DNA of 55,087 bases from an uncultured Candidatus Actinomarina sp. (GCA_902576605.1 CACGVI010000005.1:1-55087); one strand, 5' to 3'; positions 5,335 to 51,013 are shown, numbered from the stretch's first letter. Numbers and translations: made by a program. Notes: a model not told the origin generated them from the sequence alone.

Positions 5335-5354
5335 TGCTTTAAGTATATAAGAAT

Positions 5355-6983: not shown

Positions 6984-6984
6984 A

Positions 6985-8259
6985 CTAGTTTAATTCCTGT
7001 GACCAGTCAGAGTTTTCTAATTTTTCTCTTATAGAATTTAAGAACAATAATGCAACTGAACCGTCAAAAGCTCTGTGATCCCATGTCAAACTTAACATTC
7101 CAGTATGCCTAATAGCTATAGAATCAGTGCCATCCTGTGCTTCAATAACTACTGGTCTTTTTTTAACTGACTCAGTAGACAATATTGCTACGTTTGGCTG
7201 ATTAATTATTGGAGAAGTTAAGAATGAATTGAATGAACCATTGTTAGAGATGGTAAATGTACTTCCCGAAACATCATCCAAATCATAAGATCCTTCTCTT
7301 AGCTTTGATGATGTATCGGATATTTTTCTTGCTAAACCTTTCAAGCTAAATGAATCTGCTTCACGAAGAGTTGCGACTAATAAGCCCTCTTGATTGAGGT
7401 CAACAGCTATACCTAAATTAATATTACTGTGAAAACTGTGGATATTTTTATCAAGGTCGAATGAACTATTTACAACGGGATACTCTCTTAAGGCATATAT
7501 TGTAGCTAGAGATATAAAAGGTAGATAAGTTAAAGAAAAACCATTCTCTTCTTTAAATGATTTTTTGTGCTTGCTTCTTAGTATTTCAACATTTTCATAG
7601 TCAACTTCGACAGAAGTCATTACATGAGCAGAAGTCTGTTTTGACATAATCATATTCTCAGCAATTCTTCTTCTTAATCTAGAAATTTCACCACTTGAAG
7701 GTTCGGCTGATTGTACTTGCTTCTCTTTTTGTTGGCTTGGTGCTTCTTTTGGTTTTTGAACAGTCTGACTTTCAGAAGTTATAAAACTCTCAATATCTTT
7801 CCTTGTAATCCTTCCACCTGATCCAGTACCGGTAACTTGCTCAAGATCTACATTGTTTTCAGTTGCTAATTTTCTAACAACAGGTGATAACTTTAAATTA
7901 GTACTTTTAACAACTGGAGAAGATCTGACTTCTTCAACTTCCACTTCAACAACTTCCTTGACTGGCTCGCTGACAGTTTCTACTTCGTTCGATGTTTTTT
8001 CGTTAACAGAGCTACCACTTGAATCTCCATCAAGTTCCAATAGAGATGCTCCAACTTCAACAGTCTCACCTTCTTCAACTAGAAGAGATGTGACCTGACC
8101 AGTAAAAGGAGATGGAACTTCAGTATCAACTTTATCAGTTGATATTTCTAGAATAGGATCATCTTCTTTTACCTCATCACCAACTTGAACTAGCCAGCGA
8201 AGTATTGTTCCTTCAGTTACCGTTTCACCCAATTGGGGCATAGTTACAATTTGACTCAT
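6985..8259 (-). CDS. 2-oxoacid dehydrogenase E2, dihydrolipoamide acyltransferase
   Basis: Single lipoyl domain (ISTDKVDTE), E3-binding domain (SPVVRKLA...GTGSGGRITRKD), catalytic WDHRAFDG. Confidence 0.93.
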   Translation of the reverse strand: MSQIVTMPQLGETVTEGTILRWLVQVGDEVKEDDPILEISTDKVDTEVPSPFTGQVTSLLVEEGETVEVGASLLELDGDSSGSSVNEKTSNEVETVSEPVKEVVEVEVEEVRSSPVVKSTNLKLSPVVRKLATENNVDLEQVTGTGSGGRITRKDIESFITSESQTVQKPKEAPSQQKEKQVQSAEPSSGEISRLRRRIAENMIMSKQTSAHVMTSVEVDYENVEILRSKHKKSFKEENGFSLTYLPFISLATIYALREYPVVNSSFDLDKNIHSFHSNINLGIAVDLNQEGLLVATLREADSFSLKGLARKISDTSSKLREGSYDLDDVSGSTFTISNNGSFNSFLTSPIINQPNVAILSTESVKKRPVVIEAQDGTDSIAIRHTGMLSLTWDHRAFDGSVALLFLNSIREKLENSDWSQELN

Positions 8260-8263
8260 GGTT

Positions 8264-10270
8264 TTATTGTAATTCTTTTATAGCTTTTATGACTTTTTCA
8301 GCACTCGGTATGAAAGCATCTTCAAGCACAGGAGCAAAAGGAATATGAGTATTTGGAGGTGTAACTTTAACAATTGGATTGTCTAAGTTCCAAAAACCTT
8401 TTTCAGCTACCATAGATGAAATTTCAGATGCCACTGATGAGAAAGGAACATCCTCTTGTAAAATGCACAAATTTGATGTTTTTTCAACAGAATGAAGAAT
8501 AATTTCTTCATCAAGTGGAACAATTGTTCTAATGTCAATAATCTCAACGGAAATGCCTTCCTTTTCTAATTCTTGAGCAGATTGTTCTGCTACTGAAACC
8601 ATTCCTGACCATGTAACAATTGTTATGTCTGAGCCTTCTTTGACTATTTTTCCCTTACCAATTTCAACTTCATATAGTCCAAGTGGCACATCCATTTTTA
8701 TGTCAGGTTTTCTATATAGTTTTTTATGCTCTAAATACATAACCGGGTTTGGATCATTCACAGCAGCTACCAAAAGTCCTTTTGCATCATATGGATTAGA
8801 TGGAGCAACTACCTTAATTCCAGGATGATGAGCTAACAATGATTCAGGACTTATTGAGTGAAATGGACCAGACCTTGTACCTGCTCCTGTTGGACCCCTT
8901 ACAACCATAGGGACAGCTTTTCCAGCTTTCCAATGATATTTTGCTGCTTCGGTTGTTATCTGATCAAGTGCTGGATATACAAAATCATAAAACTGTAACT
9001 CAACTATCGGCTTTTTACCTGCTAGAGCTGCTCCAACTGCTGCTCCAGTAAATCCTCCCTCTGAAATTGATGTATCTATAACTCTGAACGGTCCATATTT
9101 ATCAAAAAGACCTTTTGTTGCTTTAAACGCACCTTCAAAAACTCCAATATCTTCACCCATCATAAAAACGTTTTCATCATTTTCCATCAACTCATCTAGT
9201 CCGTTAGTAATTGCTTCAATGTAGTTCATTGTTTTTTTATTATCTTCACTATTTTCAATTTTCGGAGTCGTTCTTATAGCAAAAATATCTGCTTCCTCAT
9301 TATTTGGATCCGGATCATCTTGATTTTTTGCCCAATCTAATGTTTCTTTTATTTCGGTTTCTAACTCATCTGTTAAATTTATAAAATGTTCAGTTGTGAA
9401 TAATCCTTCCTCTAATAAGGAATCCTCAAATCTTGCAATGGGATCTCTTTTCATCCAAAAATCTCTTACTTCATCATTTACGTATTCAGCGGGATCGTGT
9501 CCTGCGTGACCATAATGACGAAAGGTGACTAATTCAATTAATGAAGGTCCGTTACCATTCCTAGCTTCTTCACACGAATCATGAATTGCATCTATTACTT
9601 CATATATATCATTTCCATCAATAATCTTTGCTGGAATTCCATAGCCAGCAGCTCTATCAGCTACATTAGGTGTACCAAATTCAGTATCATTTGGTGATGA
9701 ATAAGCAAACTGATTATTTTGAACAGTAAAAACTACAGGTAGATTTAGCACTGCAGCCATATTTACACTTTCGTGCCATGTACCTGTTGCAGTAGCTCCT
9801 TCACCACAGTTTGCAACAGCAACTACGCCGGAACCACTTTGTTGAGATGCTAAAGCCCAACCAACTGCTACAGGTGCTGAATCAGGTAGCGGGGAAACAA
9901 CCATCAAAGTGCCTTTATCAACAATACCAAAGTGGCTATTTCCATCTCGTCCTTTAGATGGACCATCATTTTTTCCATAGAAATTTAATGCAATTTCTTT
10001 AAGAGTTACGCCTTTTTTAATTTGAACACCAAGATCTCTGTGTGTTCCTCCAAATATATCTTTTGAATCCATACCAGCAGCAATTCCCGCCATACATGCT
10101 TCTTGACCAATTCCCGGATAAACTGCACCACTTAACTGTCCACCTTTGTACATTTTTAACAATCTATCCTCTAATAATCTTTGTGTTTTCATTGATTTGT
10201 AAATATCCCACAAAACTTCTTTTGAAAGTGTTGCTGAATAGCCTTGTCTAGTTATTTTTTCAATTTGCAT
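8264..10270 (-). CDS. 2-oxoacid dehydrogenase E1, fused alpha/beta subunits (branched-chain-like)
   Basis: GIGQEA, TPP motif GEGA...NNQFAYS, RHYGH (alpha); MGEDIG, DTSISE, GPFHS, YLEHKKLY (beta). Start moved to the ATG at 10270 just after the lpdA stop (ORF track gives 10291). Confidence 0.9.
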   Translation of the reverse strand: MQIEKITRQGYSATLSKEVLWDIYKSMKTQRLLEDRLLKMYKGGQLSGAVYPGIGQEACMAGIAAGMDSKDIFGGTHRDLGVQIKKGVTLKEIALNFYGKNDGPSKGRDGNSHFGIVDKGTLMVVSPLPDSAPVAVGWALASQQSGSGVVAVANCGEGATATGTWHESVNMAAVLNLPVVFTVQNNQFAYSSPNDTEFGTPNVADRAAGYGIPAKIIDGNDIYEVIDAIHDSCEEARNGNGPSLIELVTFRHYGHAGHDPAEYVNDEVRDFWMKRDPIARFEDSLLEEGLFTTEHFINLTDELETEIKETLDWAKNQDDPDPNNEEADIFAIRTTPKIENSEDNKKTMNYIEAITNGLDELMENDENVFMMGEDIGVFEGAFKATKGLFDKYGPFRVIDTSISEGGFTGAAVGAALAGKKPIVELQFYDFVYPALDQITTEAAKYHWKAGKAVPMVVRGPTGAGTRSGPFHSISPESLLAHHPGIKVVAPSNPYDAKGLLVAAVNDPNPVMYLEHKKLYRKPDIKMDVPLGLYEVEIGKGKIVKEGSDITIVTWSGMVSVAEQSAQELEKEGISVEIIDIRTIVPLDEEIILHSVEKTSNLCILQEDVPFSSVASEISSMVAEKGFWNLDNPIVKVTPPNTHIPFAPVLEDAFIPSAEKVIKAIKELQ

Positions 10271-10271
10271 A

Positions 10272-11636
10272 TTAATGTAACCCCCTACCACTTAAACTCA
10301 TTAATGATTCACCAATTGCTTCACTCAAAGTTGGATGTGCATGTATAAATTCTGATGCTTCATCTGGAAGCGCTTCCCAGCCAACCATATACATTAATTC
10401 ATGTATCATTTCACCAGCAGCGGGACCGCACACACTTGCTCCCACTATAGGACCATTTTCCTCTGAGTAAACTTTTACTAATCCCTGATTTTGATTTTGT
10501 ATCATAGCTCTCCCTATACCAGCGAAGCCGTGTTGCGATTGATTAATTTTCACTCCAAGTTCTTTTGCTTTATCGGAGTTTAAGCCTACCTCAGCAAGTT
10601 CTGGCCTGGTGTATACAACATAAGGTATTGCATTGTAATTTACTGGATTGTTTTCACCTGTTGCAATATGAGTTACTGAACTTACTGCTTCAGCAAAAGC
10701 TACATGAGCTAATTGAGGAGTGTCCTCAACAATATCCCCTAAAGCATAAATATTTTCTATCTCTGTTTGTAAAGTGTCTAAGTTAGTTTTTATAAAGCCT
10801 TTATTAACATTTATACCTATTTCCTCAAGTCCAATATTTTGAGTTAAAGGTTCTCTTCCTACAGCAACTAATACACAATCAAAGCTATCACTCTCACCAT
10901 CGGAAAAGTTAACTTTATTATCATTAATAGAATCAACAGACGTACCTAATTTGAAAATAACCCCTCTTTTTGAGAGTTGCTTTCTTAATTCACCGGAAGT
11001 TCTTTTGTCTAAGCCAGGTAAAATTTCATTAGCCAACTCAACGACTACAACATCTGAATCCAAATCGTTTAAGAGACTTGCAAATTCACAACCAATGGCT
11101 CCCGCTCCGATCACACAAACTCTTTTTGGGGGTGTCTCCCAATTCAATGCTGTGTCAGATGTTATTACAAATTCATTATCAATTTCAATACTTGGGAGTG
11201 ATCTTGGTTTTGAACCAGTTGCAAGAAGTATAAAATCTGATTCAATTATTATTTGTTCACCATCTGCTTTTTTGACTAGGACATTATTTTTGTCTTTAAT
11301 CGAACCCCAGCCTTCAATTACATTTACTTTTTTGGATTTAAGCAACATACTGATTCCGCCAACAAGCTTGTTAACAATTTCATATCTTTTTTCAGCTGTT
11401 TTAGCCCAGTTAATAGTTTTTTTATCTATATCTATCCCAAACTCACTTGATGTCTCGATTTCATGATTTAATTCTGCAACATGTAGCCAGTATTTTGCTG
11501 GTATACAGCCCCTATTTAAACAAGTTCCACCGAGAGTATCAGATTCGATTAGGGTGGTTTCTAAATCAAAATTACTTGCGTAAAGTGCAGCAGCATAACC
11601 TGCTGGTCCTCCACCAATGATGGTTAATTTTTTCAA
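10272..11636 (-). CDS. lpdA: Dihydrolipoamide dehydrogenase (E3)
   Basis: GGGPAGY, GGTCLNRGCIP redox disulfide, GAGAIG, HAHPTLSE; TTG start with AAAGAGG SD. Confidence 0.95.
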   Translation of the reverse strand: MKKLTIIGGGPAGYAAALYASNFDLETTLIESDTLGGTCLNRGCIPAKYWLHVAELNHEIETSSEFGIDIDKKTINWAKTAEKRYEIVNKLVGGISMLLKSKKVNVIEGWGSIKDKNNVLVKKADGEQIIIESDFILLATGSKPRSLPSIEIDNEFVITSDTALNWETPPKRVCVIGAGAIGCEFASLLNDLDSDVVVVELANEILPGLDKRTSGELRKQLSKRGVIFKLGTSVDSINDNKVNFSDGESDSFDCVLVAVGREPLTQNIGLEEIGINVNKGFIKTNLDTLQTEIENIYALGDIVEDTPQLAHVAFAEAVSSVTHIATGENNPVNYNAIPYVVYTRPELAEVGLNSDKAKELGVKINQSQHGFAGIGRAMIQNQNQGLVKVYSEENGPIVGASVCGPAAGEMIHELMYMVGWEALPDEASEFIHAHPTLSEAIGESLMSLSGRGLH

Positions 11637-11678
11637 ATTACCTCTTTCTGGACAGGGTCTCTATCCAATCGAGATAAT
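11637..11678 (-). promoter_or_regulatory. SD-sequestering RNA hairpin in the lpdA leader
   Basis: Minus strand ATTATCTC-gat-TGGATAG-agacc-CTGTCCA-gaaa-GAGGTAAT: 8-bp and 7-bp helices (one G-U each) that enclose the GAGG SD. Confidence 0.55.
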
Positions 11679-11705
11679 AACTACACTTTTACGAGGGGTT
11701 CCCAA
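11661..11705 (-). CDS. Candidate leaderless leader peptide MGTPRKSVVIISIG upstream of lpdA
   Basis: TTG..TAG 14-aa ORF 5 nt after a TATCAT -10 hexamer (11711-11716); Val-Val-Ile-Ile-Ser-Ile run; its Ile codons can pair with the lpdA SD. Confidence 0.45.
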   Translation of the reverse strand: MGTPRKSVVIISIG

Positions 11706-11747
11706 GAAAAATGATAATAGTTATCGTCACATTTAAATCTACTAAAG

Positions 11748-11764
11748 TTTGAACGAAGTTCAAA
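11748..11764. promoter_or_regulatory. Palindromic operator-like site TTTGAAC-GAA-GTTCAAA
   Basis: Perfect 7-bp inverted repeat with a 3-nt spacer in the divergent lpdA / 11800 promoter region. Confidence 0.45.
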
Positions 11765-11799
11765 ATTAGGATTGTTTTATATTTAAGTAGAATGTAACT

Positions 11800-11886
11800 A
11801 TGCAGACAAGACATTTAATAATTGCATCTCTTTTGACAGGTTTATTAATACTTGCAGCCTTTGGTGCTTGGCTATTAACTTTTTAG
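11800..11886 (+). CDS. Small single-TM protein MQTRHLIIASLLTGLLILAAFGAWLLTF (not in ORF track)
   Basis: 28-aa ORF; TAGAAT -10 (11788-11793) lies 6 nt before the ATG; one hydrophobic helix; stop 2 nt before an in-frame TTG of the next gene. Confidence 0.6.
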   Translation: MQTRHLIIASLLTGLLILAAFGAWLLTF

Positions 11887-11888
11887 AA

Positions 11889-12857
11889 TTGAAAAACTTT
11901 AATCTACAACAAGGCATCATACATATACCAATGGAACTTCCGTGGAACTCTCCTGGATTTGTAAATGTTTATTTCATTGAGGACAATGACGGATATGTAA
12001 TGATTGATTGTGGAGTAAACGGAATCGAATATCAAGAATTATTAGAAACCAAAATGGATTTAATTGGTTTGTCATACGAAAATGTAAAGTTATTAATTGG
12101 CACTCATATGCACTCTGATCATATAGGACTATCTACAACATTAAGAAAGAAAGGGATACCTTTCGCACTCTATAAAAATTCTGTTGATTTTATAGACGGT
12201 TATAACGATTGGTCAATTAGATTTAAAAAACTTAGAGAATTTGCTAAAAAAGAAGGAGCTCCAAAAAGTTTCTTGAATGACCTCGATCAAATAGAAACTC
12301 CAATATATGCGGGTAAAATTTCAAAACCAGATGTTTTGCTTGATGAAGGAAATATAAAAAATATTAAAAGAAATATTGAAATTATATTTACCCCTGGACA
12401 TGATAGAACAGAAATCTCTATCCTTGATAATCCATCCAAAATATTATTTTCTGGTGATCATATCTTACCAAAAATTACCCCATTCATTCCCTTAGAGGAC
12501 GCTGATGATGACATGCTTGAAAAATATACATCTTCACTAAACAAGGTTTATAATCTTGAACAAAAGTTAATTGCTCCTGGTCATGGAAATTTAATTGAAA
12601 AACCATACTCTCGTATTGAGCAAATGCAACTTCATCACAAAAAAAGATCTGATAAAATCATTGACCTGATTGGTGACTCAAAATTTTCAGGCTGGGAGAT
12701 TGTAAATTTACTATTTCCAAGAAAACTTGATGAACTTAACCTAAGGCTTGCATTTCAAGAAACTTTGGCTCATTTAATATATTTGGAAAACAAGGGTTTG
12801 ATAACACATGTCGTAGATGCAAATAGAAATTACTGGGAGAAAGTTAGGCAGGTTTAA
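11889..12857 (+). CDS. MBL-fold metallo-hydrolase with C-terminal winged-helix domain
   Basis: THMHSDHIG, TPGH, FSGDH, PGHG motifs; ETLAHL.YL C-terminus. Start probably TTG 11889 (ORF track 11868). Confidence 0.88.
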   Translation: MKNFNLQQGIIHIPMELPWNSPGFVNVYFIEDNDGYVMIDCGVNGIEYQELLETKMDLIGLSYENVKLLIGTHMHSDHIGLSTTLRKKGIPFALYKNSVDFIDGYNDWSIRFKKLREFAKKEGAPKSFLNDLDQIETPIYAGKISKPDVLLDEGNIKNIKRNIEIIFTPGHDRTEISILDNPSKILFSGDHILPKITPFIPLEDADDDMLEKYTSSLNKVYNLEQKLIAPGHGNLIEKPYSRIEQMQLHHKKRSDKIIDLIGDSKFSGWEIVNLLFPRKLDELNLRLAFQETLAHLIYLENKGLITHVVDANRNYWEKVRQV

Positions 12858-41994: not shown

Positions 41995-42618
41995 TTGGCT
42001 GAAAAAGCTAACTTTTCAAACATATATAAGTTTTACGACGTAATTAATTCTTTCATAACACTTGGGTTTGATAAATCTTGGAGAAACAAAGCCAGTAACC
42101 ATATAACTGGTACAAGGGTTTTAGATCTTGGAAGTGGAACTGGTGCAGCTTTTCAACAGCTTCAAAACCTCGAAGTAACGGCTATTGACCCTGATGAAAA
42201 GATGCTTCAACTTAATAAATTCAAAAACAAAATTATTGGTGGTGCTGAAAACCTTCCGTTTCCAGATAACTCTTTCGACAGTGTTTATTGTGCTTTTGTA
42301 TGGAGAAATGTAAACGATCCAACAAAAGGCATTGAAGAGGTACATAGAGTTTTACGACCAGGTGGAAAATTTATTCTTCTTGATATGACCAGGCCTAAAA
42401 ATAACTTTCTTAAATTACTACATAAGGTTGGTACATTCAAAGTAACTCTATTGATTGGATTGTTAACCTTTAACTTAAGAGAGTACAGATTTCTTCACAA
42501 CTCACTAGATAAATATCCTCAACCTGAAGAATATTTTCAAGCCCACCCTTTTCAATATTGCAATATAGAAAGAATGGGCTTGTTTAAATTTGTTTACCTA
42601 ACGGTGCTGACGAAATAA
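41995..42618 (+). CDS. menG: Demethylmenaquinone methyltransferase (MenG/UbiE family)
   Basis: YDVINSFITLGFDKSWR, VLDLGSGTG, AENLPFPDNSFD, RVLRPGG; directly after menA. Confidence 0.85.
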   Translation: MAEKANFSNIYKFYDVINSFITLGFDKSWRNKASNHITGTRVLDLGSGTGAAFQQLQNLEVTAIDPDEKMLQLNKFKNKIIGGAENLPFPDNSFDSVYCAFVWRNVNDPTKGIEEVHRVLRPGGKFILLDMTRPKNNFLKLLHKVGTFKVTLLIGLLTFNLREYRFLHNSLDKYPQPEEYFQAHPFQYCNIERMGLFKFVYLTVLTK

Positions 42619-42638
42619 GTAATGTTAGGCTAATAATT

Positions 42639-43094
42639 TTAAAATGGGGGCATATCGTCATCATCGTAATCCCTTCTATATCGCCAAGGTGGGATATTTA
42701 AATCGGTTTCTATACTTTTTAAAAAATCATTCATATTTGATTTTTTTATTTTTAATGCACTAAAGGTATTGATATTAAATTCTGGAAATTTTTCAACATT
42801 TGATAGTACAGTTTGTATTGCATCAGCATTCCCAGCTTCTACGTATAATTCAAGTTCTTTAAGTGCATCTAGTCTTAAATTCAACTGTCGAATATATAAA
42901 GAAAGTTCTTTAAGGTATATACTCGATAGAAGAGTTGAGTAAAAAACAGGATTTGTTGTCATCCAGTTGGTTACACTATTTGCTGATATATTAAGTTCAT
43001 CCAAGATATCTTCAACATCATTACCCGCTACAAATAGGTTTATAAAATGAGTTTGTTTTTCGCTTAGTTTGCCAAGCTTTTTTTTAGAATTCAT
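42639..43094 (-). CDS. HTH-domain protein
   Basis: LSEKQTHFINLFVAG..VEDILDELNISANSVTNW...NPVF resembles N-terminal HTHs of phage/terminase-small-type proteins; acidic tail DYDDDDMPPF; overlaps the upstream gene. Confidence 0.65.
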   Translation of the reverse strand: MNSKKKLGKLSEKQTHFINLFVAGNDVEDILDELNISANSVTNWMTTNPVFYSTLLSSIYLKELSLYIRQLNLRLDALKELELYVEAGNADAIQTVLSNVEKFPEFNINTFSALKIKKSNMNDFLKSIETDLNIPPWRYRRDYDDDDMPPF

Positions 43095-43611
43095 TGAAAT
43101 CCTCCATACTCATTTCATCGGGAAGAGGTGGGGTTGTATTTAACTCTTTATACATTTCAGGTATCCAAGGCATAAGGTCTGGACATTGCGATGACACAGT
43201 AGAAACTAAATATTGATGATATTCAAATTGTTTTTTACTACTTTTTGAAATTGCATAAACACAAACATATAACCATGTAATCAGTGATACTGGAACACTT
43301 GTAGTTTGTTGTGTCGTCTTAATAAACACTCCAGGCCCCTCAAGTAGAAGATGAATTGGCATCCCATCAAAGGGGTGAATCATTACTCCATCATCTAACT
43401 TTTCAGCATTCAATTTTTTTTGTGTGTTTGTAAATAAAAAAATAAACAAAAATATTGAAACAAAATAGCTCGCAACTAAATTGCTTCTGTAAAGCCATGC
43501 AGAAGCAATTAAATATATATTTGTTATTGCTAATAAAAGCACTAAGTATATTTTTGAAAACTTATTATTTCGCATAAGCTTTGGTATTTGTGATTTAAAT
43601 TTAGACAACAT
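43084..43611 (-). CDS. Hypothetical protein with two N-terminal TM helices
   Basis: IYLVLLLAITNIYLIASAWLY and LVASYFVSIFLFIFLF segments; ATG directly after the herA stop. Confidence 0.7.
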   Translation of the reverse strand: MLSKFKSQIPKLMRNNKFSKIYLVLLLAITNIYLIASAWLYRSNLVASYFVSIFLFIFLFTNTQKKLNAEKLDDGVMIHPFDGMPIHLLLEGPGVFIKTTQQTTSVPVSLITWLYVCVYAISKSSKKQFEYHQYLVSTVSSQCPDLMPWIPEMYKELNTTPPLPDEMSMEDFNEF

Positions 43612-45360
43612 TTAAAAATCCTCAACAGAAAATTCTATCAACATGCCTTTTCCATTTGGATCAATTGCAGACCTAAGTCCTAAAGCAAAAAATTGACAGC
43701 TAATCATTAGACCAGTTTTTTTATCTTCATCAAGTGGATCTAGTGTTTTGAGCTCTTTAAATGCTTCACTTGTTAAATTTTTTGATAATTGATTAATTAC
43801 TGACTGCTGTATTCCGTACCCTAAAAGTAGAATTTTGTTTTTAATTCTCTCAAAAATTTCACTATCAAGTTGCAGTGGATCCGGATTTACAAATGCAAAA
43901 CCTAAGCCTTTGGATCTGGCCCAATTATTCAGCAATTCTTTAATGCCTTTAATAGCGCTTTCCTGATATATATTTTCTGTTTTATTTGGAAAATACATAC
44001 CAGCCTCATCAGCAAAAAATAAAGCTTTTGTCTGTTTGAAATTAGAATCTGATAAAAGTTTCTTTTGGCGTTCAATCAATTTTGAAACTATAAGACTCAA
44101 ATGCTTTTCTTTTACCCACTCAGGGATAAAATTTTTACTTCCTGGATGGATAAAAATTATGGTATTTTTACCTGAGTTTTTTGTCTTGCTAGATTTCTTT
44201 GTCAAAAACTCGTCTATAATTTCTTCAATACTCCACTTTTTATCATTACTAGAGAAGTACTGTATTAATTTATTTAGATTATTTTGGATGGAACAGACTC
44301 TGTAGTTATCATTTAAAAGTTCTGTTACTTTTTCTTTAAATGCCTCCAGTGGTCTAGGATTCGAAACCCCAGCATATACTTGAGTAGCATATGTATCTTC
44401 TTCAAATTTTTGAAGGATAAATATTACGTCATCTCTTTGAACTTCAGAACCATTTTTTATTAATTCAGGTTTTTCTTTTAGTAAGATATCTAAGAAAACG
44501 TCAATGAATTTTGCTTTGTTTCCAATATTAAAAGTAGCTTTGTTATTAAAAGTATCATATGCTTTAGCCATTGCAACTAAATTTTCATGATTCAAATCTA
44601 AAATAATGTCATCAAAAATTGATAAATTATAAATTTCTCGATTGTTTTGATGCACTGTATCAATAAAGTTTTTACTAGAGGCAAGAGATTCACCATACAT
44701 TTGGGACTTTGGATCAATGCCTAGCAGATTGATATCAGTTCCAGAATAAATTTTCAGCAAATTCAATAGTACTGAACTCTTACCCTGACCCGTATCGGCA
44801 AATATACCAATATGCTTAGCAGAGTTATCGTGATTTGGTTTTAAAATCAGATTGTCATATCCACCTTTAATTTTTTTTGAGGGAATTCTTCCAAATTTTG
44901 AATAGTCTTCTAGGTTTAATGTAGATTCCAATTTTTCTATAAAATCTCCAGCATCAACAACTGCTTCACCTGGCAATATGGGTCTGGGTAATGCATTTAA
45001 CGACTTAACGCCATCAATTGGATCAGTCTCAATTACGTTGTATATTTTAAAATTTGCTTTGTAATATGTAGTTTCACGAATTTTTAGCTCTAACGCATAG
45101 CCATCAATATTTTCAATTTCATTCGATCTTGAACGTGTATATTCAATATATTCCTTGTTTCTATCTTCAACACCATTAATTGGCTCTAACCCTGTAACTA
45201 CACCAGCTACTAGATAGCTTGCCATAGTCTTAGGGTTTTGGATTTTAATTGCTAGCATTTCGCCTTCGCGAATAGATTCCCTGTTGTCTCCAGATACTGT
45301 TATGGGTACCTCCCATACATCTCCTCCAACATTTGTTTTAGCTATAATATTTTCTGACAT
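43612..45360 (-). CDS. herA: HerA-like (FtsK/HerA superfamily) ATPase
   Basis: N-terminal beta-rich HAS-barrel-like region; HIGIFADTGQGKS Walker A, GIDPK, FFADEAGMYFP Walker B, WARSKGLG arginine-finger region; AAAGGAG SD. Confidence 0.85.
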   Translation of the reverse strand: MSENIIAKTNVGGDVWEVPITVSGDNRESIREGEMLAIKIQNPKTMASYLVAGVVTGLEPINGVEDRNKEYIEYTRSRSNEIENIDGYALELKIRETTYYKANFKIYNVIETDPIDGVKSLNALPRPILPGEAVVDAGDFIEKLESTLNLEDYSKFGRIPSKKIKGGYDNLILKPNHDNSAKHIGIFADTGQGKSSVLLNLLKIYSGTDINLLGIDPKSQMYGESLASSKNFIDTVHQNNREIYNLSIFDDIILDLNHENLVAMAKAYDTFNNKATFNIGNKAKFIDVFLDILLKEKPELIKNGSEVQRDDVIFILQKFEEDTYATQVYAGVSNPRPLEAFKEKVTELLNDNYRVCSIQNNLNKLIQYFSSNDKKWSIEEIIDEFLTKKSSKTKNSGKNTIIFIHPGSKNFIPEWVKEKHLSLIVSKLIERQKKLLSDSNFKQTKALFFADEAGMYFPNKTENIYQESAIKGIKELLNNWARSKGLGFAFVNPDPLQLDSEIFERIKNKILLLGYGIQQSVINQLSKNLTSEAFKELKTLDPLDEDKKTGLMISCQFFALGLRSAIDPNGKGMLIEFSVEDF

Positions 45361-45372
45361 TTTATCTCCTTT

Positions 45373-46437
45373 TCATGTCCTGACTCTAAATGGAAGATTA
45401 TGTAAAAAATCTTCCTGTTCCATTGCTATTTTTTCATCCAAGCTATTGAGCGAGAACCTACGCTTCATTTCACTTTTAGCAAAATCTTCTGCAAAAAATG
45501 TAGCATAAGGTTCTTTTTGAATACCCAACATTTCTATGGATAAAGCTTTAAATATTGATTGTTTTGATTTTTGAAATAACTTGTTGTTTAAATATTCAAC
45601 TTTTAAAGGACTGTCGTTTGTGTCAAACTTAAGGATTTCACCCTTATATATATTTTTAGAGAAATTTAACAACCTTTCATATTGATCTATGTAATCAGCT
45701 GCATTGCTATCAAAAGCTCTTAATGAAGAGAGCCTCGTAAGCATTTGGTCTTGATGTATTTTCTCAATAAAGGATTCATTAGAATGCAATACAACACCAA
45801 AAACTCTCTTTGGAATCAATTGATTATAGTCTTTTTTAAATTCATCTAGAATAATTTTCAAATCATATGAAAAAAAATCCTTAACAACATAACAAACTGT
45901 ATTTGTCATTAAATTATCAACTAAAGTTTTAAACTCAGACGCATCGAATCGATCACAAAGTTCTGGAAAAATTTCAACAAGGTTTTTAATATCTTTAAGA
46001 ATTGCCCAGAATGGTCCATCTACAATTATCAAATCATCGTCTTGAGTATTTTTGCAAGTTTCATTAATAGCTTGGAATTCAAGTAGCCTCATTTGCAAGA
46101 GATCTTTTTCTAAATTTGTAGACCAGATTGTGTCAGATTTTGCAAAATCGTACTGATGCCGTCCTTCAAGAATTACACCTGTTGTTGAAGCACATGCTAT
46201 AACTTTGTATTTGTATTCTCCACTTACATCATTTATTTCAGATAGTGTGCCATCAATTCCAAAGGTTCTTGGTGATGGCACAACTATCTTTTCCCCTTGC
46301 CCTATAGGGGTAAGGGTCCCAGGGTTATTTCTTAAAATATATTCTCTTAATCGCATCCTATCTTTAGCTAAATTTGTTCTTAACTTATAGTCGTTTATTG
46401 ATAGAGAGCTAATTGAGTTCTCTGTAGTTTTACTCAT
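45373..46437 (-). CDS. nurA: NurA-family nuclease
   Basis: FGIDGT, MRLLE, LIIVDGP, YVVK and C-terminal EPY....AE..AK match NurA motifs; directly upstream of herA. Start MSKT at 46437 (ORF track 46461). Confidence 0.8.
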   Translation of the reverse strand: MSKTTENSISSLSINDYKLRTNLAKDRMRLREYILRNNPGTLTPIGQGEKIVVPSPRTFGIDGTLSEINDVSGEYKYKVIACASTTGVILEGRHQYDFAKSDTIWSTNLEKDLLQMRLLEFQAINETCKNTQDDDLIIVDGPFWAILKDIKNLVEIFPELCDRFDASEFKTLVDNLMTNTVCYVVKDFFSYDLKIILDEFKKDYNQLIPKRVFGVVLHSNESFIEKIHQDQMLTRLSSLRAFDSNAADYIDQYERLLNFSKNIYKGEILKFDTNDSPLKVEYLNNKLFQKSKQSIFKALSIEMLGIQKEPYATFFAEDFAKSEMKRRFSLNSLDEKIAMEQEDFLHNLPFRVRT

Positions 46438-46555
46438 AAGACTGTTCCAAAATATTTTCAAATCCCTGCTCAGTTATTAGATTTTCTAATTCAGTAAGCC
46501 GAAGGTCAAGAGCGGTTGTTTCACTCTGAAGGTAATCTAAGATTTTCACAATCAT
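46430..46555 (-). CDS. Small acidic protein MIVKILDYLQSETTALDLRLTELENLITEQGFENILEQSYE (not in ORF track)
   Basis: 41-aa ORF filling the gap before nurA; its stop overlaps the nurA start (ATGAGTAA); helical/coiled-coil-like pattern. Confidence 0.55.
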   Translation of the reverse strand: MIVKILDYLQSETTALDLRLTELENLITEQGFENILEQSYE

Positions 46556-46574
46556 TGATATCTTTTTAAACAAC

Positions 46575-46967
46575 TTATACATTTGTAGGTCCTTCTTCAG
46601 TGGAACTTTCTTCTAAAACATACTTAAAAATTTGTGCTTCATTCATCATTGGAGCAACAGCAACTAAGAAGTTCCCAGTGTCATCTTCCACAACAAAATT
46701 TTGTTTTGTTTTTGGGTCAACTTCTTTTATAAATATTTGATCCGGATCTAATGAATGAAATTCATCCTTTGATGCAATTTCTCCAAATAAAACACAGCCG
46801 TCATCATCTGTAAAAACCAATTGATCTCCTTCTGCAAAGTGACCTTTTAGTTGACCAGTTTTATACCTTCTTAATACTTCCGTATTGATTATTTGGCACA
46901 ATTGATACAATTTTGAGTTTGTTGTATTAGATATGCTTTCTTTAATTGTTGTTAAAACTTCTTCCAT
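46575..46967 (-). CDS. Hypothetical acidic protein (helix plus possible SH3-like beta domain)
   Basis: 130 aa; AAGGAG SD; FAEGDQLVF...LFGEI pattern resembles SH3/KOW barrels. Confidence 0.7.
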   Translation of the reverse strand: MEEVLTTIKESISNTTNSKLYQLCQIINTEVLRRYKTGQLKGHFAEGDQLVFTDDDGCVLFGEIASKDEFHSLDPDQIFIKEVDPKTKQNFVVEDDTGNFLVAVAPMMNEAQIFKYVLEESSTEEGPTNV

Positions 46968-46969
46968 TT

Positions 46970-47158
46970 TTATTCTCCTTGAGTTCTATTGATATGTCCA
47001 CGTATCCTTGGGAAGGAAACTGGTGTGTGTAAAAAGCAATATTTTTTTTTGTTGTAAATCGATAGTTGCGTAAGGCAGTATTGCTCTGCACAAAATCTAC
47101 CGCTAACATATTGCTTCGACTTGCGTCTGTTACTCGTTCCGAGTCTTTTTCCATTCAT
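46970..47158 (-). CDS. Small basic protein with putative C-x4-C-x12-C-x2-H zinc finger
   Basis: GRFCAEQYCLTQLSIYNKKKYCFLH; AGGAGA SD 7 nt upstream; stop 2 nt before the next start. Confidence 0.72.
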   Translation of the reverse strand: MNGKRLGTSNRRKSKQYVSGRFCAEQYCLTQLSIYNKKKYCFLHTPVSFPRIRGHINRTQGE

Positions 47159-47177
47159 TCGAAATTCTCCTAAATTA

Positions 47178-47197
47178 AATAACTATTAATAACTATT
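47178..47197. repeat. Tandem direct repeat (AATAACTATT)x2
   Basis: Two exact 10-bp copies next to the 9-bp array. Confidence 0.75.
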
Positions 47198-47199
47198 TT

Positions 47200-47261
47200 T
47201 GAGCAGAGTGAGCAGAGTGAGCAGAGTGAGCAGAGTGAGCAGAGTGAGCAGAGTGAGCAGA
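47200..47261. repeat. Tandem repeat (TGAGCAGAG)x6 + TGAGCAGA
   Basis: Six perfect 9-bp units plus 8 nt of a seventh, read directly. Confidence 0.97.
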
Positions 47262-47270
47262 AAACATACC

Positions 47271-47311
47271 TTGGTAGTGCAAACCGTCTGCTCATTGGTA
47301 AGCACTACCAA
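47271..47311. repeat. Inverted repeat TTGGTAGTGC / GCACTACCAA with repeat-complementary loop
   Basis: Perfect 10-bp arms (47271-47280, 47302-47311); the loop contains TCTGCTCA (47287-47294), the reverse complement of TGAGCAGA. Confidence 0.9.
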
Positions 47312-47427
47312 AAGTAATAATCTATTTATAACAGATATAAAAATTAATGCGCGCTTATTTTATAAGAATTTGATAATTTTTATAAATTTAGCAAAATCGT
47401 CGGTACAATATATAATAGTTAGTAACA

Positions 47428-48672
47428 ATGACAAAAATTAAAACTTTAGAAGAAATTAAATATCTGTTGGTTAGTGATTTTGGAATCAAAAATATTTCTG
47501 GCAGACCTATATTGACTACCAATTCAGAAGATATATCAGGCATTCTAGGAAGTGCCCTCCCCTCTATTTATTATCGTGTCGAAATTGAGTACGAAAATTA
47601 TAAAAATAATGCATATGTTATTTTTTCTTTAGCTTTGGATCCAATTAAAAATACTGAACTATATTCATATAATGAAAATACAATTAAAATTCTCAATTAT
47701 TCACAAAATCCTGGAAGATCACCTTCATCTCCTGAATTCAAAATTGAGTTAAGAGAAAATAATATTGATCAAAGTTTTGAAGTAGCCTACAGACAGTTTC
47801 ATAAAAATTTAGAAAATGATGAATTTGAAAATATTTTTTTAGATAAAGAATTAAAAACTCTGAAATTAGCTTTTTCTGATCTGGAAACAATACTGAATAA
47901 AACTAAAAAAGAAAGAAATAATCTAGTTCAACAAGTAAATGTAGAAAATGAGCTAAAGACATTTTCATTAGATCCTCAAATGTTTAATGACTTTAACATT
48001 TTAGATTTGCAAAAAACATGTACCCTTTTTCTTGAAGCTAGGTATGGTGCACTACATAAATTAAAAGAAGATAATTCAGATATTCAGACACTAGAAGTTA
48101 TTGATTGGCAACAACTTTATAATACTTACACTACAAAAAATATTGCTCTTTCCTATCTAAACAAAATAAACGATGCTGAATCTTTCAAAATAAATGATGA
48201 ATTTTTAATATCTATTTATTTCACAATAATCAAAGACTTGAATGGCATAGAGCAGAAAATATTTACTAAGGCATTAAAAAATTTAAATATTGAGCCAAGC
48301 ATTTTAGAAAGTAGCCTATATAAAGCAATTGATAGAATGAAAAAAATTCAAAATGAAGAATATCAAAAACGACAAAAGTTGAAATCGTCAATTGGCGAAG
48401 CTCCAAGGAAAAGAGAGTATAAAATTGAAATTAATTCTGCGACAAATCCAAAATTAAACAAAACAAGGGACGCCCTTTTATATATTGAAGTTTTACTGCG
48501 GTTAATATCCAAAAACAATACTATGAATCAAGATCTTCTTTTGCAAAGATCTTTAGACATGTATCTTAGAACTAAATTTGCAAGGTTTAAACAAGATGGG
48601 TATATAAATAATTCAAAAAATGGTCCTCGGTACACTCTTGAAAGCAAAGGTCGAAATCTTCTAACTAAATAA
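47428..48672 (+). CDS. Hypothetical 414-aa protein, helical, with possible C-terminal winged helix
   Basis: Long ORF divergent from the nurA-herA operon; C-terminus FARFKQDGYI....GPRYTLESKGRNLL fits a wHTH wing pattern; TATAAT at 47411-47416. Confidence 0.7.
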   Translation: MTKIKTLEEIKYLLVSDFGIKNISGRPILTTNSEDISGILGSALPSIYYRVEIEYENYKNNAYVIFSLALDPIKNTELYSYNENTIKILNYSQNPGRSPSSPEFKIELRENNIDQSFEVAYRQFHKNLENDEFENIFLDKELKTLKLAFSDLETILNKTKKERNNLVQQVNVENELKTFSLDPQMFNDFNILDLQKTCTLFLEARYGALHKLKEDNSDIQTLEVIDWQQLYNTYTTKNIALSYLNKINDAESFKINDEFLISIYFTIIKDLNGIEQKIFTKALKNLNIEPSILESSLYKAIDRMKKIQNEEYQKRQKLKSSIGEAPRKREYKIEINSATNPKLNKTRDALLYIEVLLRLISKNNTMNQDLLLQRSLDMYLRTKFARFKQDGYINNSKNGPRYTLESKGRNLLTK

Positions 48673-48886
48673 AATCTAATATCTCAAGATACATATTAAG
48701 ACTAGGTTTTATTTTAATACTTTTAAGGCTGAGAGATTTAACTTTATTTTCATTCGTAGAAATAATTTCTAAAATTACTTCTTCATTTCCAGGATAATTA
48801 TTAAATACGTTTCTTAATTTATACAAACTTTCTTTATTTAATTTATACTCTTCAAACCTTATGATAAAAGCATTGGGATCTGTCAT
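48665..48886 (-). CDS. Stand-alone domain resembling the C-terminal domain of DNA Pol III alpha (DnaE)
   Basis: LYKLRNVFNNYPGNEEVILEI...IKIKPSLNMYLEI resembles the L..LK.IL..HPG...V.L....V.PS..L..L end of DnaE; 73 aa with its own ATG. Confidence 0.55.
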   Translation of the reverse strand: MTDPNAFIIRFEEYKLNKESLYKLRNVFNNYPGNEEVILEIISTNENKVKSLSLKSIKIKPSLNMYLEILDFI

Positions 48887-48890
48887 GGTT

Positions 48891-49133
48891 CTACCAAAGA
48901 GGTCCGAAAAGACGAGAATATAAAATATATAGTGAATTTTTTTCTACTTCAACCATTTGTTTCCAAAACTTTATATTTTCATTAGAGTAAATTGCACTAG
49001 CTTCATCCTCTGACATACCAGAATCAATATTTCTTATATAATTTTCCTGTGGTTCAGTAATACCAACTTCTAATAAGTCTTTAAGGGCTTTTTGGATAAT
49101 ATTTAATTCTTGTTGATTTAACTCATATTGCAT
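48891..49133 (-). CDS. Hypothetical protein
   Basis: 80-aa ORF; TAATAT -10-like hexamer 7 nt before the ATG; stop 4 nt before the next start. Confidence 0.6.
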   Translation of the reverse strand: MQYELNQQELNIIQKALKDLLEVGITEPQENYIRNIDSGMSEDEASAIYSNENIKFWKQMVEVEKNSLYILYSRLFGPLW

Positions 49134-49144
49134 ATATGCAATAT
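49125..49144. promoter_or_regulatory. Perfect 20-bp palindrome ATATTGCATATATGCAATAT
   Basis: Self-complementary; overlaps the start codon at 49133 and part of its -10. Confidence 0.5.
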
Positions 49145-49166
49145 TAAAAAAAGACTATGACAAAAT

Positions 49167-49769
49167 TTATTGATTAGCTAGAGCTACAAGAAGTTGTCCT
49201 ACTTGATCCTGTGGAAGGTTTCCAGTTCTTCTTGCAACAACATTCAAATCTTTATCTAAAAACACCCAGTAAGGAAATGCGTTTAGTCCATAAGCAGTAG
49301 CAATCTCTTTATCAAGGTCGTATAACTGAAGTTCAGACCAACCCTCATTTGCTAGCCAATCGTGTGGAGGATAATTATCCCTGGATCTGTCAATTGAAGT
49401 TGCAACCGCTATCAACTCAATGCCGTCTGGTACGCCAATTAGATTTACATATTCTTGAACTACAGGCACTTCTTGTTGACAGTACCCACACCAGTGAGCT
49501 AGAAAGAGTAATGCTTTAGCATTGCCGTTCTTTTCAATTGTTACAATTTCAGAATTTTGATTAGGTGCAGAGAAAGTTGGAGCAGCTAAGCCTCTAGCGA
49601 TATTGTCATCATTTTCTGATGCAAATTGAGGAAGAAAATCACCATTTACTGTTGTTTCACCTTCTGGTAAGTTGCCATCTATAGGTTCATCTACAAGCGT
49701 CACACCAATAGCAACAGCTAAACCAATTACTAAAACAACTCCACCAGCGATAAAAAAGTTTTTATTCAA
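49167..49769 (-). CDS. Membrane-anchored TlpA/ResA-like thioredoxin
   Basis: N-terminal TM, APTFS, FLAHWCGYC, AYGLNAFPYWVFLD. TTG start at 49769 after GAAAGG (ORF track 49793). Confidence 0.88.
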   Translation of the reverse strand: MNKNFFIAGGVVLVIGLAVAIGVTLVDEPIDGNLPEGETTVNGDFLPQFASENDDNIARGLAAPTFSAPNQNSEIVTIEKNGNAKALLFLAHWCGYCQQEVPVVQEYVNLIGVPDGIELIAVATSIDRSRDNYPPHDWLANEGWSELQLYDLDKEIATAYGLNAFPYWVFLDKDLNVVARRTGNLPQDQVGQLLVALANQ

Positions 49770-50280
49770 TAATTTCCTTTCTCGATAAATCATAATACAA
49801 CAAAGCTAAAAATATCGTCAAAAAACCAGTACTAGCCATAACTGGAATTGAAATAAATCCAAAGATGTCAACATATTTTAGATTACATGGCACGTCAACA
49901 GCGCAGGAACCTCCACCTCCTCCACCATTTTGGAGATATATATGATAAGCTCCTACTCCAACGCCTAAAAGACTCAAGTATGCAGCGCGGATAAATCTTT
50001 TATTAAATAATCCAATTATCAATATTAATGCGATTGGGTACATCAAATAGCGTTGATACCAGCAGAATTTACATGGAATAAATCCAACAACTTCTGAATA
50101 GACCAAACTTCCAACAGAACAAACAAAAGCTACTAATGTTGCAAAGTTGTAAAATTGATCATTTATAACTTTGCTAAATCTTTTTTTTGTAAAGATAAAA
50201 AATAATAATAGTGAACATATAGCCCATGCAACAAAAGTAAAGAAGCCAAATAAAGTATTAAAAAAAACAATTAAGTCCAT
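49762..50280 (-). CDS. dsbB: Disulfide bond formation protein (DsbB/BdbC family)
   Basis: GSLVYSE..GFIPCKFCWYQR..MYP, second pair C....PC, FGFISIP. Confidence 0.88.
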   Translation of the reverse strand: MDLIVFFNTLFGFFTFVAWAICSLLLFFIFTKKRFSKVINDQFYNFATLVAFVCSVGSLVYSEVVGFIPCKFCWYQRYLMYPIALILIIGLFNKRFIRAAYLSLLGVGVGAYHIYLQNGGGGGGSCAVDVPCNLKYVDIFGFISIPVMASTGFLTIFLALLYYDLSRKEIIE

Positions 50281-50295
50281 AAAGAATTTTACCCT

Positions 50296-50331
50296 AAAAA
50301 AAATGATAGGCGGTCATTGCCGCCTATCATT
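50296..50331 (-). terminator. Rho-independent terminator of the rhodopsin gene
   Basis: 12-bp stem AATGATAGGCGG / CCGCCTATCATT with a 6-nt loop, followed by a T-run on the minus strand. Confidence 0.88.
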
Positions 50332-50353
50332 AAAGTTTTTGTATGAAAAAGTT

Positions 50354-51013
50354 TTAGACTTTTTCTCCTGACTTGATTCTTGCCATTCCAAGTACCAATA
50401 CACCAAGACCAACTTTATTAATTATGTCAGCAATTGTGTAAAGAACTTCTCTAATAGCATCGAAGTCGCCTGCTACTGGAGCTAAATAACCTAATGGATA
50501 GATTATCCAACCAACAAGTATGAGATTTTTGATTTTCTCAAACTGATCTGCTTCTGCAGCTTTAAGTCCTGCACCTTCTGCTTGAAGATTTCTCATCAAG
50601 TATGCATATGCAAGCATAGCTACAACAAATCCAATCCAGTAATTGTCACTGCCTGCAGATGATGTTTCACCGTAATAACCAGCTCCGATCATCACTGTTG
50701 CAGCGAGTCCCCAGTTTCTAACTTTTTCGTTATACTCTGCACCTGAAGATGTCACAGCAAGCACCTCTACAAACATTAATGGTACTGTTAGGATCCAGTC
50801 GACATATCTTAAGCCTGTATCATAATCCCCACCAGCCCATGAGCCAGTCATTTTGTTATAGTGATACCAAGCTATTCCTGTCACAAGAGCGGAGATATAC
50901 ACTCCTCTTCTGTGTTTTGGATCTACTTCTCTTGATGATGCTAGTAAAAATACTGTTCCAGCGAGCATACCCACTGTTGCCACCATAAAGAGTCTATAAG
51001 TAAGTTCAGCCAT
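50354..51013 (-). CDS. Proton-pumping microbial rhodopsin (MACR/proteorhodopsin-like)
   Basis: 7 TM; RYVDWILTVPLMFVE (DTE motif, Met at the position equivalent to 105), helix-B His, DIINKVG retinal Lys; AAGGAG SD. Confidence 0.95.
   Translation of the reverse strand: MAELTYRLFMVATVGMLAGTVFLLASSREVDPKHRRGVYISALVTGIAWYHYNKMTGSWAGGDYDTGLRYVDWILTVPLMFVEVLAVTSSGAEYNEKVRNWGLAATVMIGAGYYGETSSAGSDNYWIGFVVAMLAYAYLMRNLQAEGAGLKAAEADQFEKIKNLILVGWIIYPLGYLAPVAGDFDAIREVLYTIADIINKVGLGVLVLGMARIKSGEKV

Follow-up and report, generated by a model that had tools for sequence, protein, structure and literature searches.

The stretch of DNA analyzed here (the window, 55,087 nucleotides) is a whole contig of a ~1 Mb genome (33% G+C) from an uncultured Candidatus Actinomarina sp., a lineage which, among free-living marine bacteria, is one of the smallest and most abundant. 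The contig carries an accessory island of ~6.5 kb with ubiE on its left and a thioredoxin-like gene on its right, and between the two divergent transcription units of this island lies a noncoding region with a perfect 9-bp tandem array, a two-tier hairpin and a short palindrome (Table 1). An earlier note on this DNA had reported the array, a 10-bp stem extendable by ACC/GGT and a loop complementary to 8 of the 9 unit bases, as well as an adjacent twofold repeat, and had placed all of this between the two divergent units; inspection of the sequence, TRF and folding confirmed each of these observations.

Table 1. Features of the island and of the region between its divergent operons (positions counted from the first nucleotide of the window).
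Feature	Position	Strand	Description
ubiE	41995-42618	+	left neighbor of the island
Accessory island	42619-49166		~6.5 kb, inserted between ubiE and the thioredoxin-like gene
Remaining leftward operon	42639-46967	-	130 aa, 50 aa, 362 aa, 582 aa, 175 aa, 151 aa
62-aa gene	46970-47158	-	basic protein, C-x4-C-x12-C-x2-H; first gene of the leftward operon
Ribosome-binding site	47167-47171		AGGAG, 8 nt ahead of the ATG of the 62-aa gene
Twofold repeat	47178-47197		(AATAACTATT)x2, quasi-palindrome of form AAATAnnTATTT; TRF score 40
Tandem array	47200-47261		(TGAGCAGAG)x6.9, perfect: six full units + TGAGCAGA; minus-strand reading (CTCTGCTCA)n; TRF
Two-tier hairpin	47271-47311		apical loop of 9-11 nt; both strands folded
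Outer stem	47271-47280 / 47302-47311		TTGGTAGTGC / GCACTACCAA, perfect 10 bp
Internal loop			2x2 AA/AA, separates outer and inner stems
Inner stem	47283-47286 / 47296-47299		ACC(G) / (T)GGT
Loop segment	47287-47294		TCTGCTCA, exact reverse complement of TGAGCAGA, i.e., of 8 of the 9 unit bases
Palindrome	47354-47366		CTTATTTTATAAG, located between the hairpin and the 414-aa promoter; alignment
Promoter-like site	47388-47416	+	TTAGCA-17-TATAAT, 10 of 12 consensus matches only
414-aa gene	47428-48672	+	orphan protein with C-terminal winged-helix-like domain
73-aa gene	48665-48886	-	small gene; tblastn vs L048-L051
80-aa gene	48891-49133	-	small gene; tblastn vs L048-L051
Thioredoxin-like gene	49167-49793	-	right neighbor of the island

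TRF gave the array a score of 124 (period 9, 6.9 copies, 100% matches), while every other array in the window scored 52 or less, in agreement with the statement of the earlier note that it is the only such array there; in the entire assembly (757,654 bases, 63% complete) it is the sole perfect noncoding array. Across the window, 11 copies of the motif TGAGCAGA were counted where 1.76 would be expected, a number reached in none of 100 shuffles, and 8 of the 11 occurrences belong to the array and the loop. The twofold repeat, which has the array on one side and the ribosome-binding site of the 62-aa gene on the other, may be an operator or a small hairpin; repeats of this type are found as a single copy in a second genome carrying the island (G045) and as two imperfect copies in metagenome contig L048.

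Several trivial origins of the array were considered. The possibility of an assembly artefact, which the earlier note had itself raised, was rejected, as the same design is present in five independent assemblies (the window and four further loci, namely another genome and three metagenome contigs) and the window stretch is present in 20 listed runs, which come from 11 studies. Contigs from Logan are broken at the array; in X4, a second DNA run, the unitig of the array is covered to a depth of 17.8 and its flanks to ~5.5, which fits ~6.5 units, and in metagenome X1 many variant array unitigs reach a summed depth of 266 against 13.6 for the flanks. A coding repeat was likewise rejected, since TGA appears in each of the three plus-strand frames with the 7-bp unit of L049 and since the minus-strand peptides differ from locus to locus. 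No tRNA or tmRNA was found at the element, and a search of Rfam gave 0 matches at the gathering score and none of relevance at E values up to 1, the best sub-threshold match being unrelated (E 0.5).

Folded alone, the hairpin has an energy of -19.9 kcal/mol on the plus strand and -22.4 kcal/mol on the minus strand (z -5.2 and -4.6, respectively), and none of 200 shuffles was equally stable; the entire 171-nt stretch is of ordinary stability (z -0.06 and -0.95). No intrinsic terminator was called at the hairpin on either strand, and only in the window and L048 is it followed, on the minus strand, by a U-rich tail (UGUUUUCU).

The 62-aa protein belongs to a family present in 63 of 64 genomes of the genus, usually twice, and its Cys/His pattern is kept in two core paralogues, with a third (island) copy in G000, G045 and G046 only. 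Searches of Pfam, PHROGs, NCBIfam and PADLOC matched no family to it, and the Atlas returned unnamed actinobacterial clusters only. Farther along the leftward operon, the 362-aa gene occupies the usual NurA position ahead of the 582-aa gene; its product had no Pfam match and gave an unusable structure model (pLDDT 49), and it may at most be taken as a candidate NurA-like protein, NurA being marked by DG-type motifs. The 582-aa protein is a HerA-like P-loop ATPase according to a PADLOC match to mad8 (3.1e-8), Walker A and B motifs are read from its translation, and one of its homologues carries PF01935 (HerA central domain). The operon further encodes a membrane-like protein (175 aa) and an HTH-like protein (151 aa). 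On the other side, the 73-aa and 80-aa genes come after the 414-aa gene and ahead of the thioredoxin-like gene in every locus.

The 414-aa protein matched no family in four libraries (Pfam, PHROGs, NCBIfam and PADLOC), and its homologues number 7 among 5.8 billion proteins and 13 among 1.84 billion representatives, while the genomes that carry the family number 2 of 64 in the genus and 2 of 401 in the class. The C-terminal part (residues 254-414) has a likeness to wHTH domains with Z scores of 5-7.3, which lie below the tool's own bar of 8, in a predicted fold which is poor overall (pLDDT 64.7). Foldseek returned nothing for this model at E <= 0.001, PDB sequence searches gave nothing significant, and the Atlas gave no result for the 414-aa protein. 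Used alone as query, the protein had no relatives among viral or genome contigs; with an alignment as query, viral contigs again gave nothing and genome contigs gave G045 alone. Searches of viral contigs for two distant homologues (P0015 and P0021) were also negative, and neither the 414-aa nor the 582-aa protein is present in the phage collection. The labels "wHTH protein" and "Zn-finger protein" given by the earlier note are plausible but tentative, as judged from domain resemblance and residue pattern.

The island itself is variable in the genus. In four genomes (G009, G077, G042 and G072) ubiE and the thioredoxin-like gene are adjacent, with no island between them; G045 has an island at the same site with the same gene order and diverged proteins, and G046 has a diverged version, again with the same gene order, at another site. 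No direct repeats were found at the island ends, and no att repeats or integrase were seen. The island is therefore a rare, movable module: the third copy of the 62-aa family is present in only 3 of 64 genus genomes and the G046 version lies elsewhere. In the related island of G046 a 504-aa gene replaces the 414-aa gene, and there is neither an array nor a stable fold (z -0.46 and +0.52). Separately, a homologue of the 362-aa protein with 97% identity (P0027) and one of the 414-aa protein with only 69% (P0008) are listed from the same source, with equal values for the longest contig, and this difference within one source suggests that the right arm of the island may be exchanged independently of the left arm.

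We compared five loci, all with a homologue of the 414-aa gene: the window, L017 (the locus of G045), L048, L049 and L050; in the last four the protein is ~60% (partial), 97%, 64% and 46% identical to that of the window, respectively. The array and hairpin accompany the 414-aa gene at every locus, and the layout is the same in all five, with the array followed after 4-9 nt by the hairpin and then, after ~40 nt, by the palindrome, a TATAAT-type box and the ATG of the 414-aa gene. The TATAAT or TATAGT box is aligned in all five; in the window the promoter-like site ends 12 nt before the ATG, and the leader would be very short. The palindrome is exact in four of the five loci, whereas G045 retains GCTTATTTT and has a diverged second half (GTATT); a similar palindrome, CTTTATTTATAAG, is also found in the G046 island. 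We take the palindrome to be a probable protein-binding site.

The units themselves differ. L048 has 7.0 copies of TGAGCAGAA (9 bp), L017 has 6.8 copies of TAGCAGAAT (9 bp), L049 has at least 7.0 copies of GCGTGAA (7 bp) and L050 has at least 3.9 copies of ACTGGAGATTTC (12 bp), the last two arrays meeting the contig end; the three complete arrays are 61-63 bp long. In every locus the apical loop holds a complement of the local array, the longest such complement being 8 nt in the window, 6 nt in L048, 7 nt in L017, 7 nt in L049 and 6 nt in L050, as compared with 2-4 nt between a loop and arrays of unrelated units. Per 20000 shuffled loops, the observed length was matched by 31 for the window, 665 for L048, 255 for L017, 183 for L049 and 1084 for L050. 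In G045, 10 nt of the loop are complementary to the unit closest to the 62-aa gene. Stem sequences vary by locus (the types GGTAGTGC, AGTAGTGC, GC-rich GGCGGCGC and CTTGAGG) yet remain paired, and the five hairpins fold with z scores of -2.2 to -5.2 on both strands; a MAFFT alignment of the hairpins was structurally inconsistent. The five loci are not independent, as the window and L048 are close kin and the unit of L017 is related to theirs, leaving three unrelated unit families.

The loss of loop-repeat complementarity in homologous loci had been named in the earlier note as a refuting outcome; the complementarity was instead present in 5 of 5 loci. Array, hairpin and complementarity change jointly over these loci and are tied to the 414-aa family and its island context. 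We regard this joint change of loop and repeat over unrelated sequences as strong comparative evidence for a working nucleic-acid pairing. The window and L048 differ at 11 positions in 166 noncoding nucleotides (47262-47427), four of them within the loop of 11 nt, and a single G/A difference is shared by all six full units. The loop of the window contains a 10-nt complement of the L048-type unit, TCTGCTCATT, and the ancestor of the two probably paired over 10 nt, each lineage then having lost part of the match. Of this, 8 nt are left in the window, as compared with 6 nt in L048; this shrinkage from a reconstructed 10 nt suggests that selection on the complementarity may be loose.

In our best, tentative reading, array and hairpin belong together as the two parts of a single cis-element which acts through base pairing of loop and unit, most likely as RNA. 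The specific form of this idea that we favor, tentatively, is a small RNA or an RNA leader in which the loop would pair with ~7 targets arranged in tandem in front of the Zn-finger/HerA-like operon and which would give each island control of a private specificity. Here we infer transcription of the element, its acting strand, pairing in the cell and a regulatory outcome. A leftward transcript starting in the divergent promoter region would cross the hairpin, then the array and then the ribosome-binding site of the 62-aa gene. Its loop (AAUGAGCAGAC as minus-strand RNA) could pair with any of ~7 registers of CUCUGCUCA located 9-70 nt downstream, either in cis, as a pseudoknot, or in trans once the stable hairpin had been released. 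Such pairing would hold the operon down through a translation block or early termination, and seven equivalent targets would make it fast and robust. With its own pair of loop and unit, each island variant would have private control in the manner of heteroimmune phages; related immunity-RNA elements are likewise distinguished by their paired bases. The winged-helix end of the 414-aa protein would probably read the palindrome and not the repeats.

Several observations argue for this reading. Pairing is preferred over a protein lattice because the unit length varies (7, 9 and 12 bp) while the winged-helix end is almost invariant; spacing is immaterial to pairing but not to a protein lattice, so the variation in length counts in favor of pairing. 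In addition, the complement is constantly located in the apical loop, the stems covary, and candidate promoters on the minus strand are located upstream of the hairpin. Finally, the G046 island, with its other large gene, has neither the array nor a stable fold. Against the RNA reading, we know of no perfect head-to-tail target arrays in antisense control, and the comparison draws on only three unrelated unit families among the five loci.

As to the strand, energies favor the minus-strand hairpin in 4 of 5 loci, z scores in 3 of 5; the energies are, for instance, -23.0 vs. -15.9 in L017 and -24.6 vs. -19.0 in L050, and in these loci C-A mismatches on the plus strand turn into G-U pairs on the minus strand. 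Two changes favor the plus strand, namely the unit G opposite a loop U in the window and the change of A to G at 47311, and loop-array duplex energies computed for both strands gave no clean separation of strands, nor of own and foreign arrays. A promoter scan found two minus-strand candidates upstream of the hairpin, called no sigma-70-like promoter from the array to the 62-aa gene, and called no plus-strand promoter left of the array. Two contigs from RNA libraries, both unstranded and possibly derived from DNA, cover the element and are weak evidence for its transcription: X19 contains the array at a depth of 19 as compared with 2-3 on the gene, and X20 holds 254 nt that begin in the loop and reach into the gene. 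These runs were seen as contigs only, and stretches they leave uncovered are uninformative. We lean toward the minus strand as the acting one, which is to be read as a leaning and not as a result.

The main competitor, somewhat unlikely in our estimation, is a site that works as DNA, in which one of the island proteins would bind the units as iterons, with the inverted copy exposed in a cruciform or single-stranded hairpin, serving as a clt locus, a loading site for the HerA-like pump, an origin, a centromere-like site or an operator. The host is actinobacterial, and direct plus inverted repeats are typical of actinomycete plasmid sites in the available text of the work on these plasmids (PMC3583192). 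Among the island products are a winged-helix-like protein, a membrane-like protein and the HerA-like ATPase, the array is placed between divergent operons, and the three complete arrays keep to a nearly constant length, all of which would suit such a site. What speaks against it is that the unit is 9, 7 or 12 bp long among 414-aa proteins which are 46-64% identical and almost invariant at the winged-helix end, and that no island protein (10 ORFs; Pfam, NCBIfam and PHROGs) matched a Rep or FtsK_SpoIIIE family. Furthermore, the stems stay paired despite their change, in part through pairs of the G-U type that exist on one strand, whereas a double-stranded site would need no such pairing, and the HerA-like module of G046 is without an array, indicating that the pump can do without it. 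Of the possibilities put forward in the earlier note, the structured leader or noncoding RNA and the iteron/hairpin loading site remain the two leading readings.

An improbable variant is that the hairpin is a guide, as RNA or as single-stranded DNA held by the 414-aa protein, and that its loop reads the array. If so, the island would mark itself with a programmable address which could serve in loading of the HerA-like pump, in partition, or in telling itself from rival islands, and a new specificity could arise through a change in the loop and amplification of the matching repeat, with the DNA-reading surface of the protein untouched. A loop guiding a protein in this way would be a new natural programmable recognition system.

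The earlier note had also proposed a slipped-strand switch of variable copy number. In a contingency locus of this kind, the number of units would switch or tune the divergent promoters and the match to the loop would be incidental. Perfect head-to-tail units in a promoter or leader region, the concerted change of all units between the window and L048, and the variant array unitigs of X1 (266 vs. 13.6) are what such a locus might show; however, 3 of 3 complete arrays hold 6.9, 7.0 and 6.8 units at 414-aa identities down to ~60%, the depth in X4 fits ~6.5 units, only one promoter match is strong and the array does not fall within its -35/-10 spacer, and the loop complementarity of all five loci would be left unexplained. 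A copy-number switch therefore finds no support here, and we consider it quite improbable.

Very unlikely, in our view, is a system like the type III toxin-antitoxins, with a repeat RNA, a terminator hairpin and a 414-aa protein that would cut and bind the repeat RNA. The plus-strand order of repeats, hairpin and gene in 5 of 5 loci would agree with it, as would the likeness of the island to a conflict or mobile system. ToxI-type units are ~34-36 nt long, and those of 7-12 nt found here are far below this length; the 414-aa gene has its own promoter-like site past the hairpin, where no terminator was called, its product has no PADLOC or Pfam match, and no promoter was called on the plus strand left of the array. 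The least likely explanation, a loop that serves as a telomerase-like template for copying units, so that the array would follow the loop by mechanism and not by selection, would account for the wholesale change of loop and unit with unchanged stems between the window and L049 and for complements which cover roughly a whole unit, both in L049 (7 of 7 nt) and in the presumed ancestor of the window (10 nt where the unit has 9), but this proposal of the earlier note is disfavored by the lack of an RVT_1 match in the 63%-complete assembly and of any polymerase-like family among the island proteins, by complements of only 6 nt out of 12 in L050 and 6 out of 9 in L048, and by the position of the array inside the island and not at its end.

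In sum, the comparison points to a previously undescribed base-pairing element of control or recognition, located in a rare, fast-diverging island. As loop and unit can be swapped between natural variants, the pairing hypothesis is directly testable. Our literature search found no described element of this design, and the available portions of the Actinomarina papers describe no mobile or regulatory element of this kind.

Partial likenesses to four groups of known systems are nevertheless evident. In ToxIN, AbiQ and CptIN, a tandem repeat array, a hairpin and a protein gene follow one another, and the present loci share this order; they differ from type III toxin-antitoxin systems in that units of 7-12 nt are too short to fold, in that the protein is of no known family, and in that it has a promoter-like site of its own.

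Elements for transfer and replication of actinomycete plasmids come closer in their arrangement. According to the accessible parts of the reports, pJV1 has nine 9-bp repeats with two inverted repeats, pIJ101 has an inverted repeat with three 5-bp repeats, the clt locus of pWTY27 has 7-bp repeats with inverted repeats and is bound by the FtsK-like TraA, the winged helix of pSVH1 TraB reads 8-bp repeats, and the pWTY27 origin has GTGGGAAC five times, the inverse TTCCCAC five times and a long inverted repeat, bound by RepA and possibly forming a stem-loop (PMC3583192; PMC4447253). As far as these descriptions go, our element is similar in having short direct repeats (5-9 bp there) beside an inverted repeat and near genes for a DNA-pump ATPase and a winged-helix protein, and it has 6.8-7.0 perfect noncoding units where the array is complete and, in each of the five loci, a hairpin separated from the array by 4-9 nt. 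Unlike those sites, it is accompanied by a HerA-like ATPase only, with no TraB/FtsK_SpoIIIE or Rep family; its units are perfect, strictly head-to-tail and of a length which varies among close homologues; and its inverted copy is located exactly in the loop of a hairpin whose stems covary.

For the pump itself, the nearest parallel is TdtA, the HerA-type protein of Thermus ICEth1, which in the available text is described as being without a DNA-binding domain of its own, with a separate recognition factor expected (PMC5365140). Both small integrated elements have the gene for a HerA-like hexameric ATPase after a gene of ~360-380 aa in the NurA position. In contrast to ICEth1, for which the same text describes no repeat/hairpin element, the present island has such an element and shows no att repeats or integrase. 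If the element acts as DNA, it would be a cis site for a HerA-type DNA pump.

The closest parallels to the reading that we prefer, pairing as RNA, are the immunity RNAs of phages P4 and P1. The P4 CI hairpin RNA pairs with seqA and seqC of its own transcript (PMC4825925), the hairpin of the P1 C4 antisense RNA pairs with targets in its own transcript (PMC8198154), and in both cases, as described in the text available, the pairing silences downstream genes of the mobile element (PMC4825925; PMC8198154). Like P4 CI and P1/P7 C4, which are hairpin RNAs encoded in a leader as described there, the element presented here combines a hairpin with a few bases complementary to sites close by, in what would be one transcription unit. 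It is unlike them in lacking a sequence or Rfam match, in belonging to an actinobacterial island of 6.5 kb and not to a phage, in that its transcription and processing are so far putative, and in having ~7 perfect tandem targets where P4 CI and P1 C4 have one or two. If the element acts as RNA, it would extend in-cis antisense immunity to a multi-register target and to the Actinobacteria.

Judged from sequence identities, the accessory island is a mosaic of differently diverged parts; the comparison covered L048 and L051 (other loci) and two protein database homologues, P0008 and P0027. At L048, which also carries the array and hairpin, identity to the window is 97% for the 414-aa protein, 86% for the 62-aa protein and only 81% for the 73-aa and 80-aa proteins. 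P0027 is 97% identical to the 362-aa protein and P0008 69% identical to the 414-aa protein; the two come from the same source, and their longest contigs are equal in length. In G045, the genome that contains locus L017, divergence beyond the 62-aa gene is too great for tblastn to match the genes there, while identity in the two flanks is still 73-88%.

Genome G046 holds a diverged form of the island (L061, contig C3, ~5139-11906) at a different chromosomal site, beside the rpiB and fumarase genes. Its gene order is that of the window island, with the 414-aa gene replaced by an unrelated 504-aa orphan. Neither the array nor a stable hairpin was found in this version, which nevertheless retains a palindrome resembling CTTTATTTATAAG.

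Many short array unitigs of 46-57 nt, with 0-4 differences, were recovered from a seawater metagenome run (X1) for window 47200-47260. Their summed depth was 266 vs 13.6 on the flanks, a hint that the population contains either numerous variants of the array or arrays that are longer.

Two promoter-like sites in the window diverge from each other with overlapping -10 boxes, and the -35 box (TTGTCA) of the minus-strand site shares bases with the start codon (ATG) of the 414-aa gene. In addition, a minus-strand hexamer resembling TAnnnT lies between hairpin and array in all five loci (window 47262-47270, L017, L048, L049 and L050), the five versions reading TATGTT, TATGTT, TATATC, TAGCAT and TAAAAT. 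Should this hexamer act as a -10 box, transcription would begin with the array, and the -35 region would fall within the hairpin.

Positions of features in the window, in the genome it comes from (G000) and in other genus genomes
Feature	Location	Positions	Strand	Remark
Core copy, 62-aa family	G000, contig C1	53436-53636	-	
Core copy, 62-aa family	G000, contig C1	28529-28723	-	
Promoter-like site	window	47407-47434	-	10/12 matches
Promoter-like site	window	47388-47416	+	10/12 matches
Perfect palindrome ATATTGCATATATGCAATAT	window	49125-49144		overlaps start codon of 80-aa gene
80-aa-homologue region	L062	9605-12651		
80-aa-homologue region	L063	7411-8966		
80-aa-homologue region	L064	579-818		

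Palindrome ATATTGCATATATGCAATAT sits just past the stop of the thioredoxin-like gene, and a related palindrome is present in G045. Homologues of the 80-aa protein, 45-49% identical, occur in three more genus genomes (L062, L063 and L064), each adjoined by a membrane-like ORF of 157-160 aa. Near the homologue in L062 and L063 are ORFs of 415-417 aa, whose N-termini we take, by motif, to resemble cytosine-5 DNA methyltransferases. The 80-aa gene may be a marker of variable-region edges. Directly adjoining the island (window 49167-51013) are thioredoxin-like, DsbB-like and bacteriorhodopsin-like genes, as assigned by Pfam.

Two core copies of the 62-aa protein family, which is without a Pfam model, lie ~22-25 kb apart in nearly all genus genomes (63 of 64). 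All three copies in G000 have C-x4-C-x12-C-x2-H in common. Directly downstream of one core copy in G000 is a DnaK-like gene, named by eye from its N-terminal sequence, and downstream of the other is an ORF of 69 aa that contains the motif CGHC and to us has the look of a copper chaperone.
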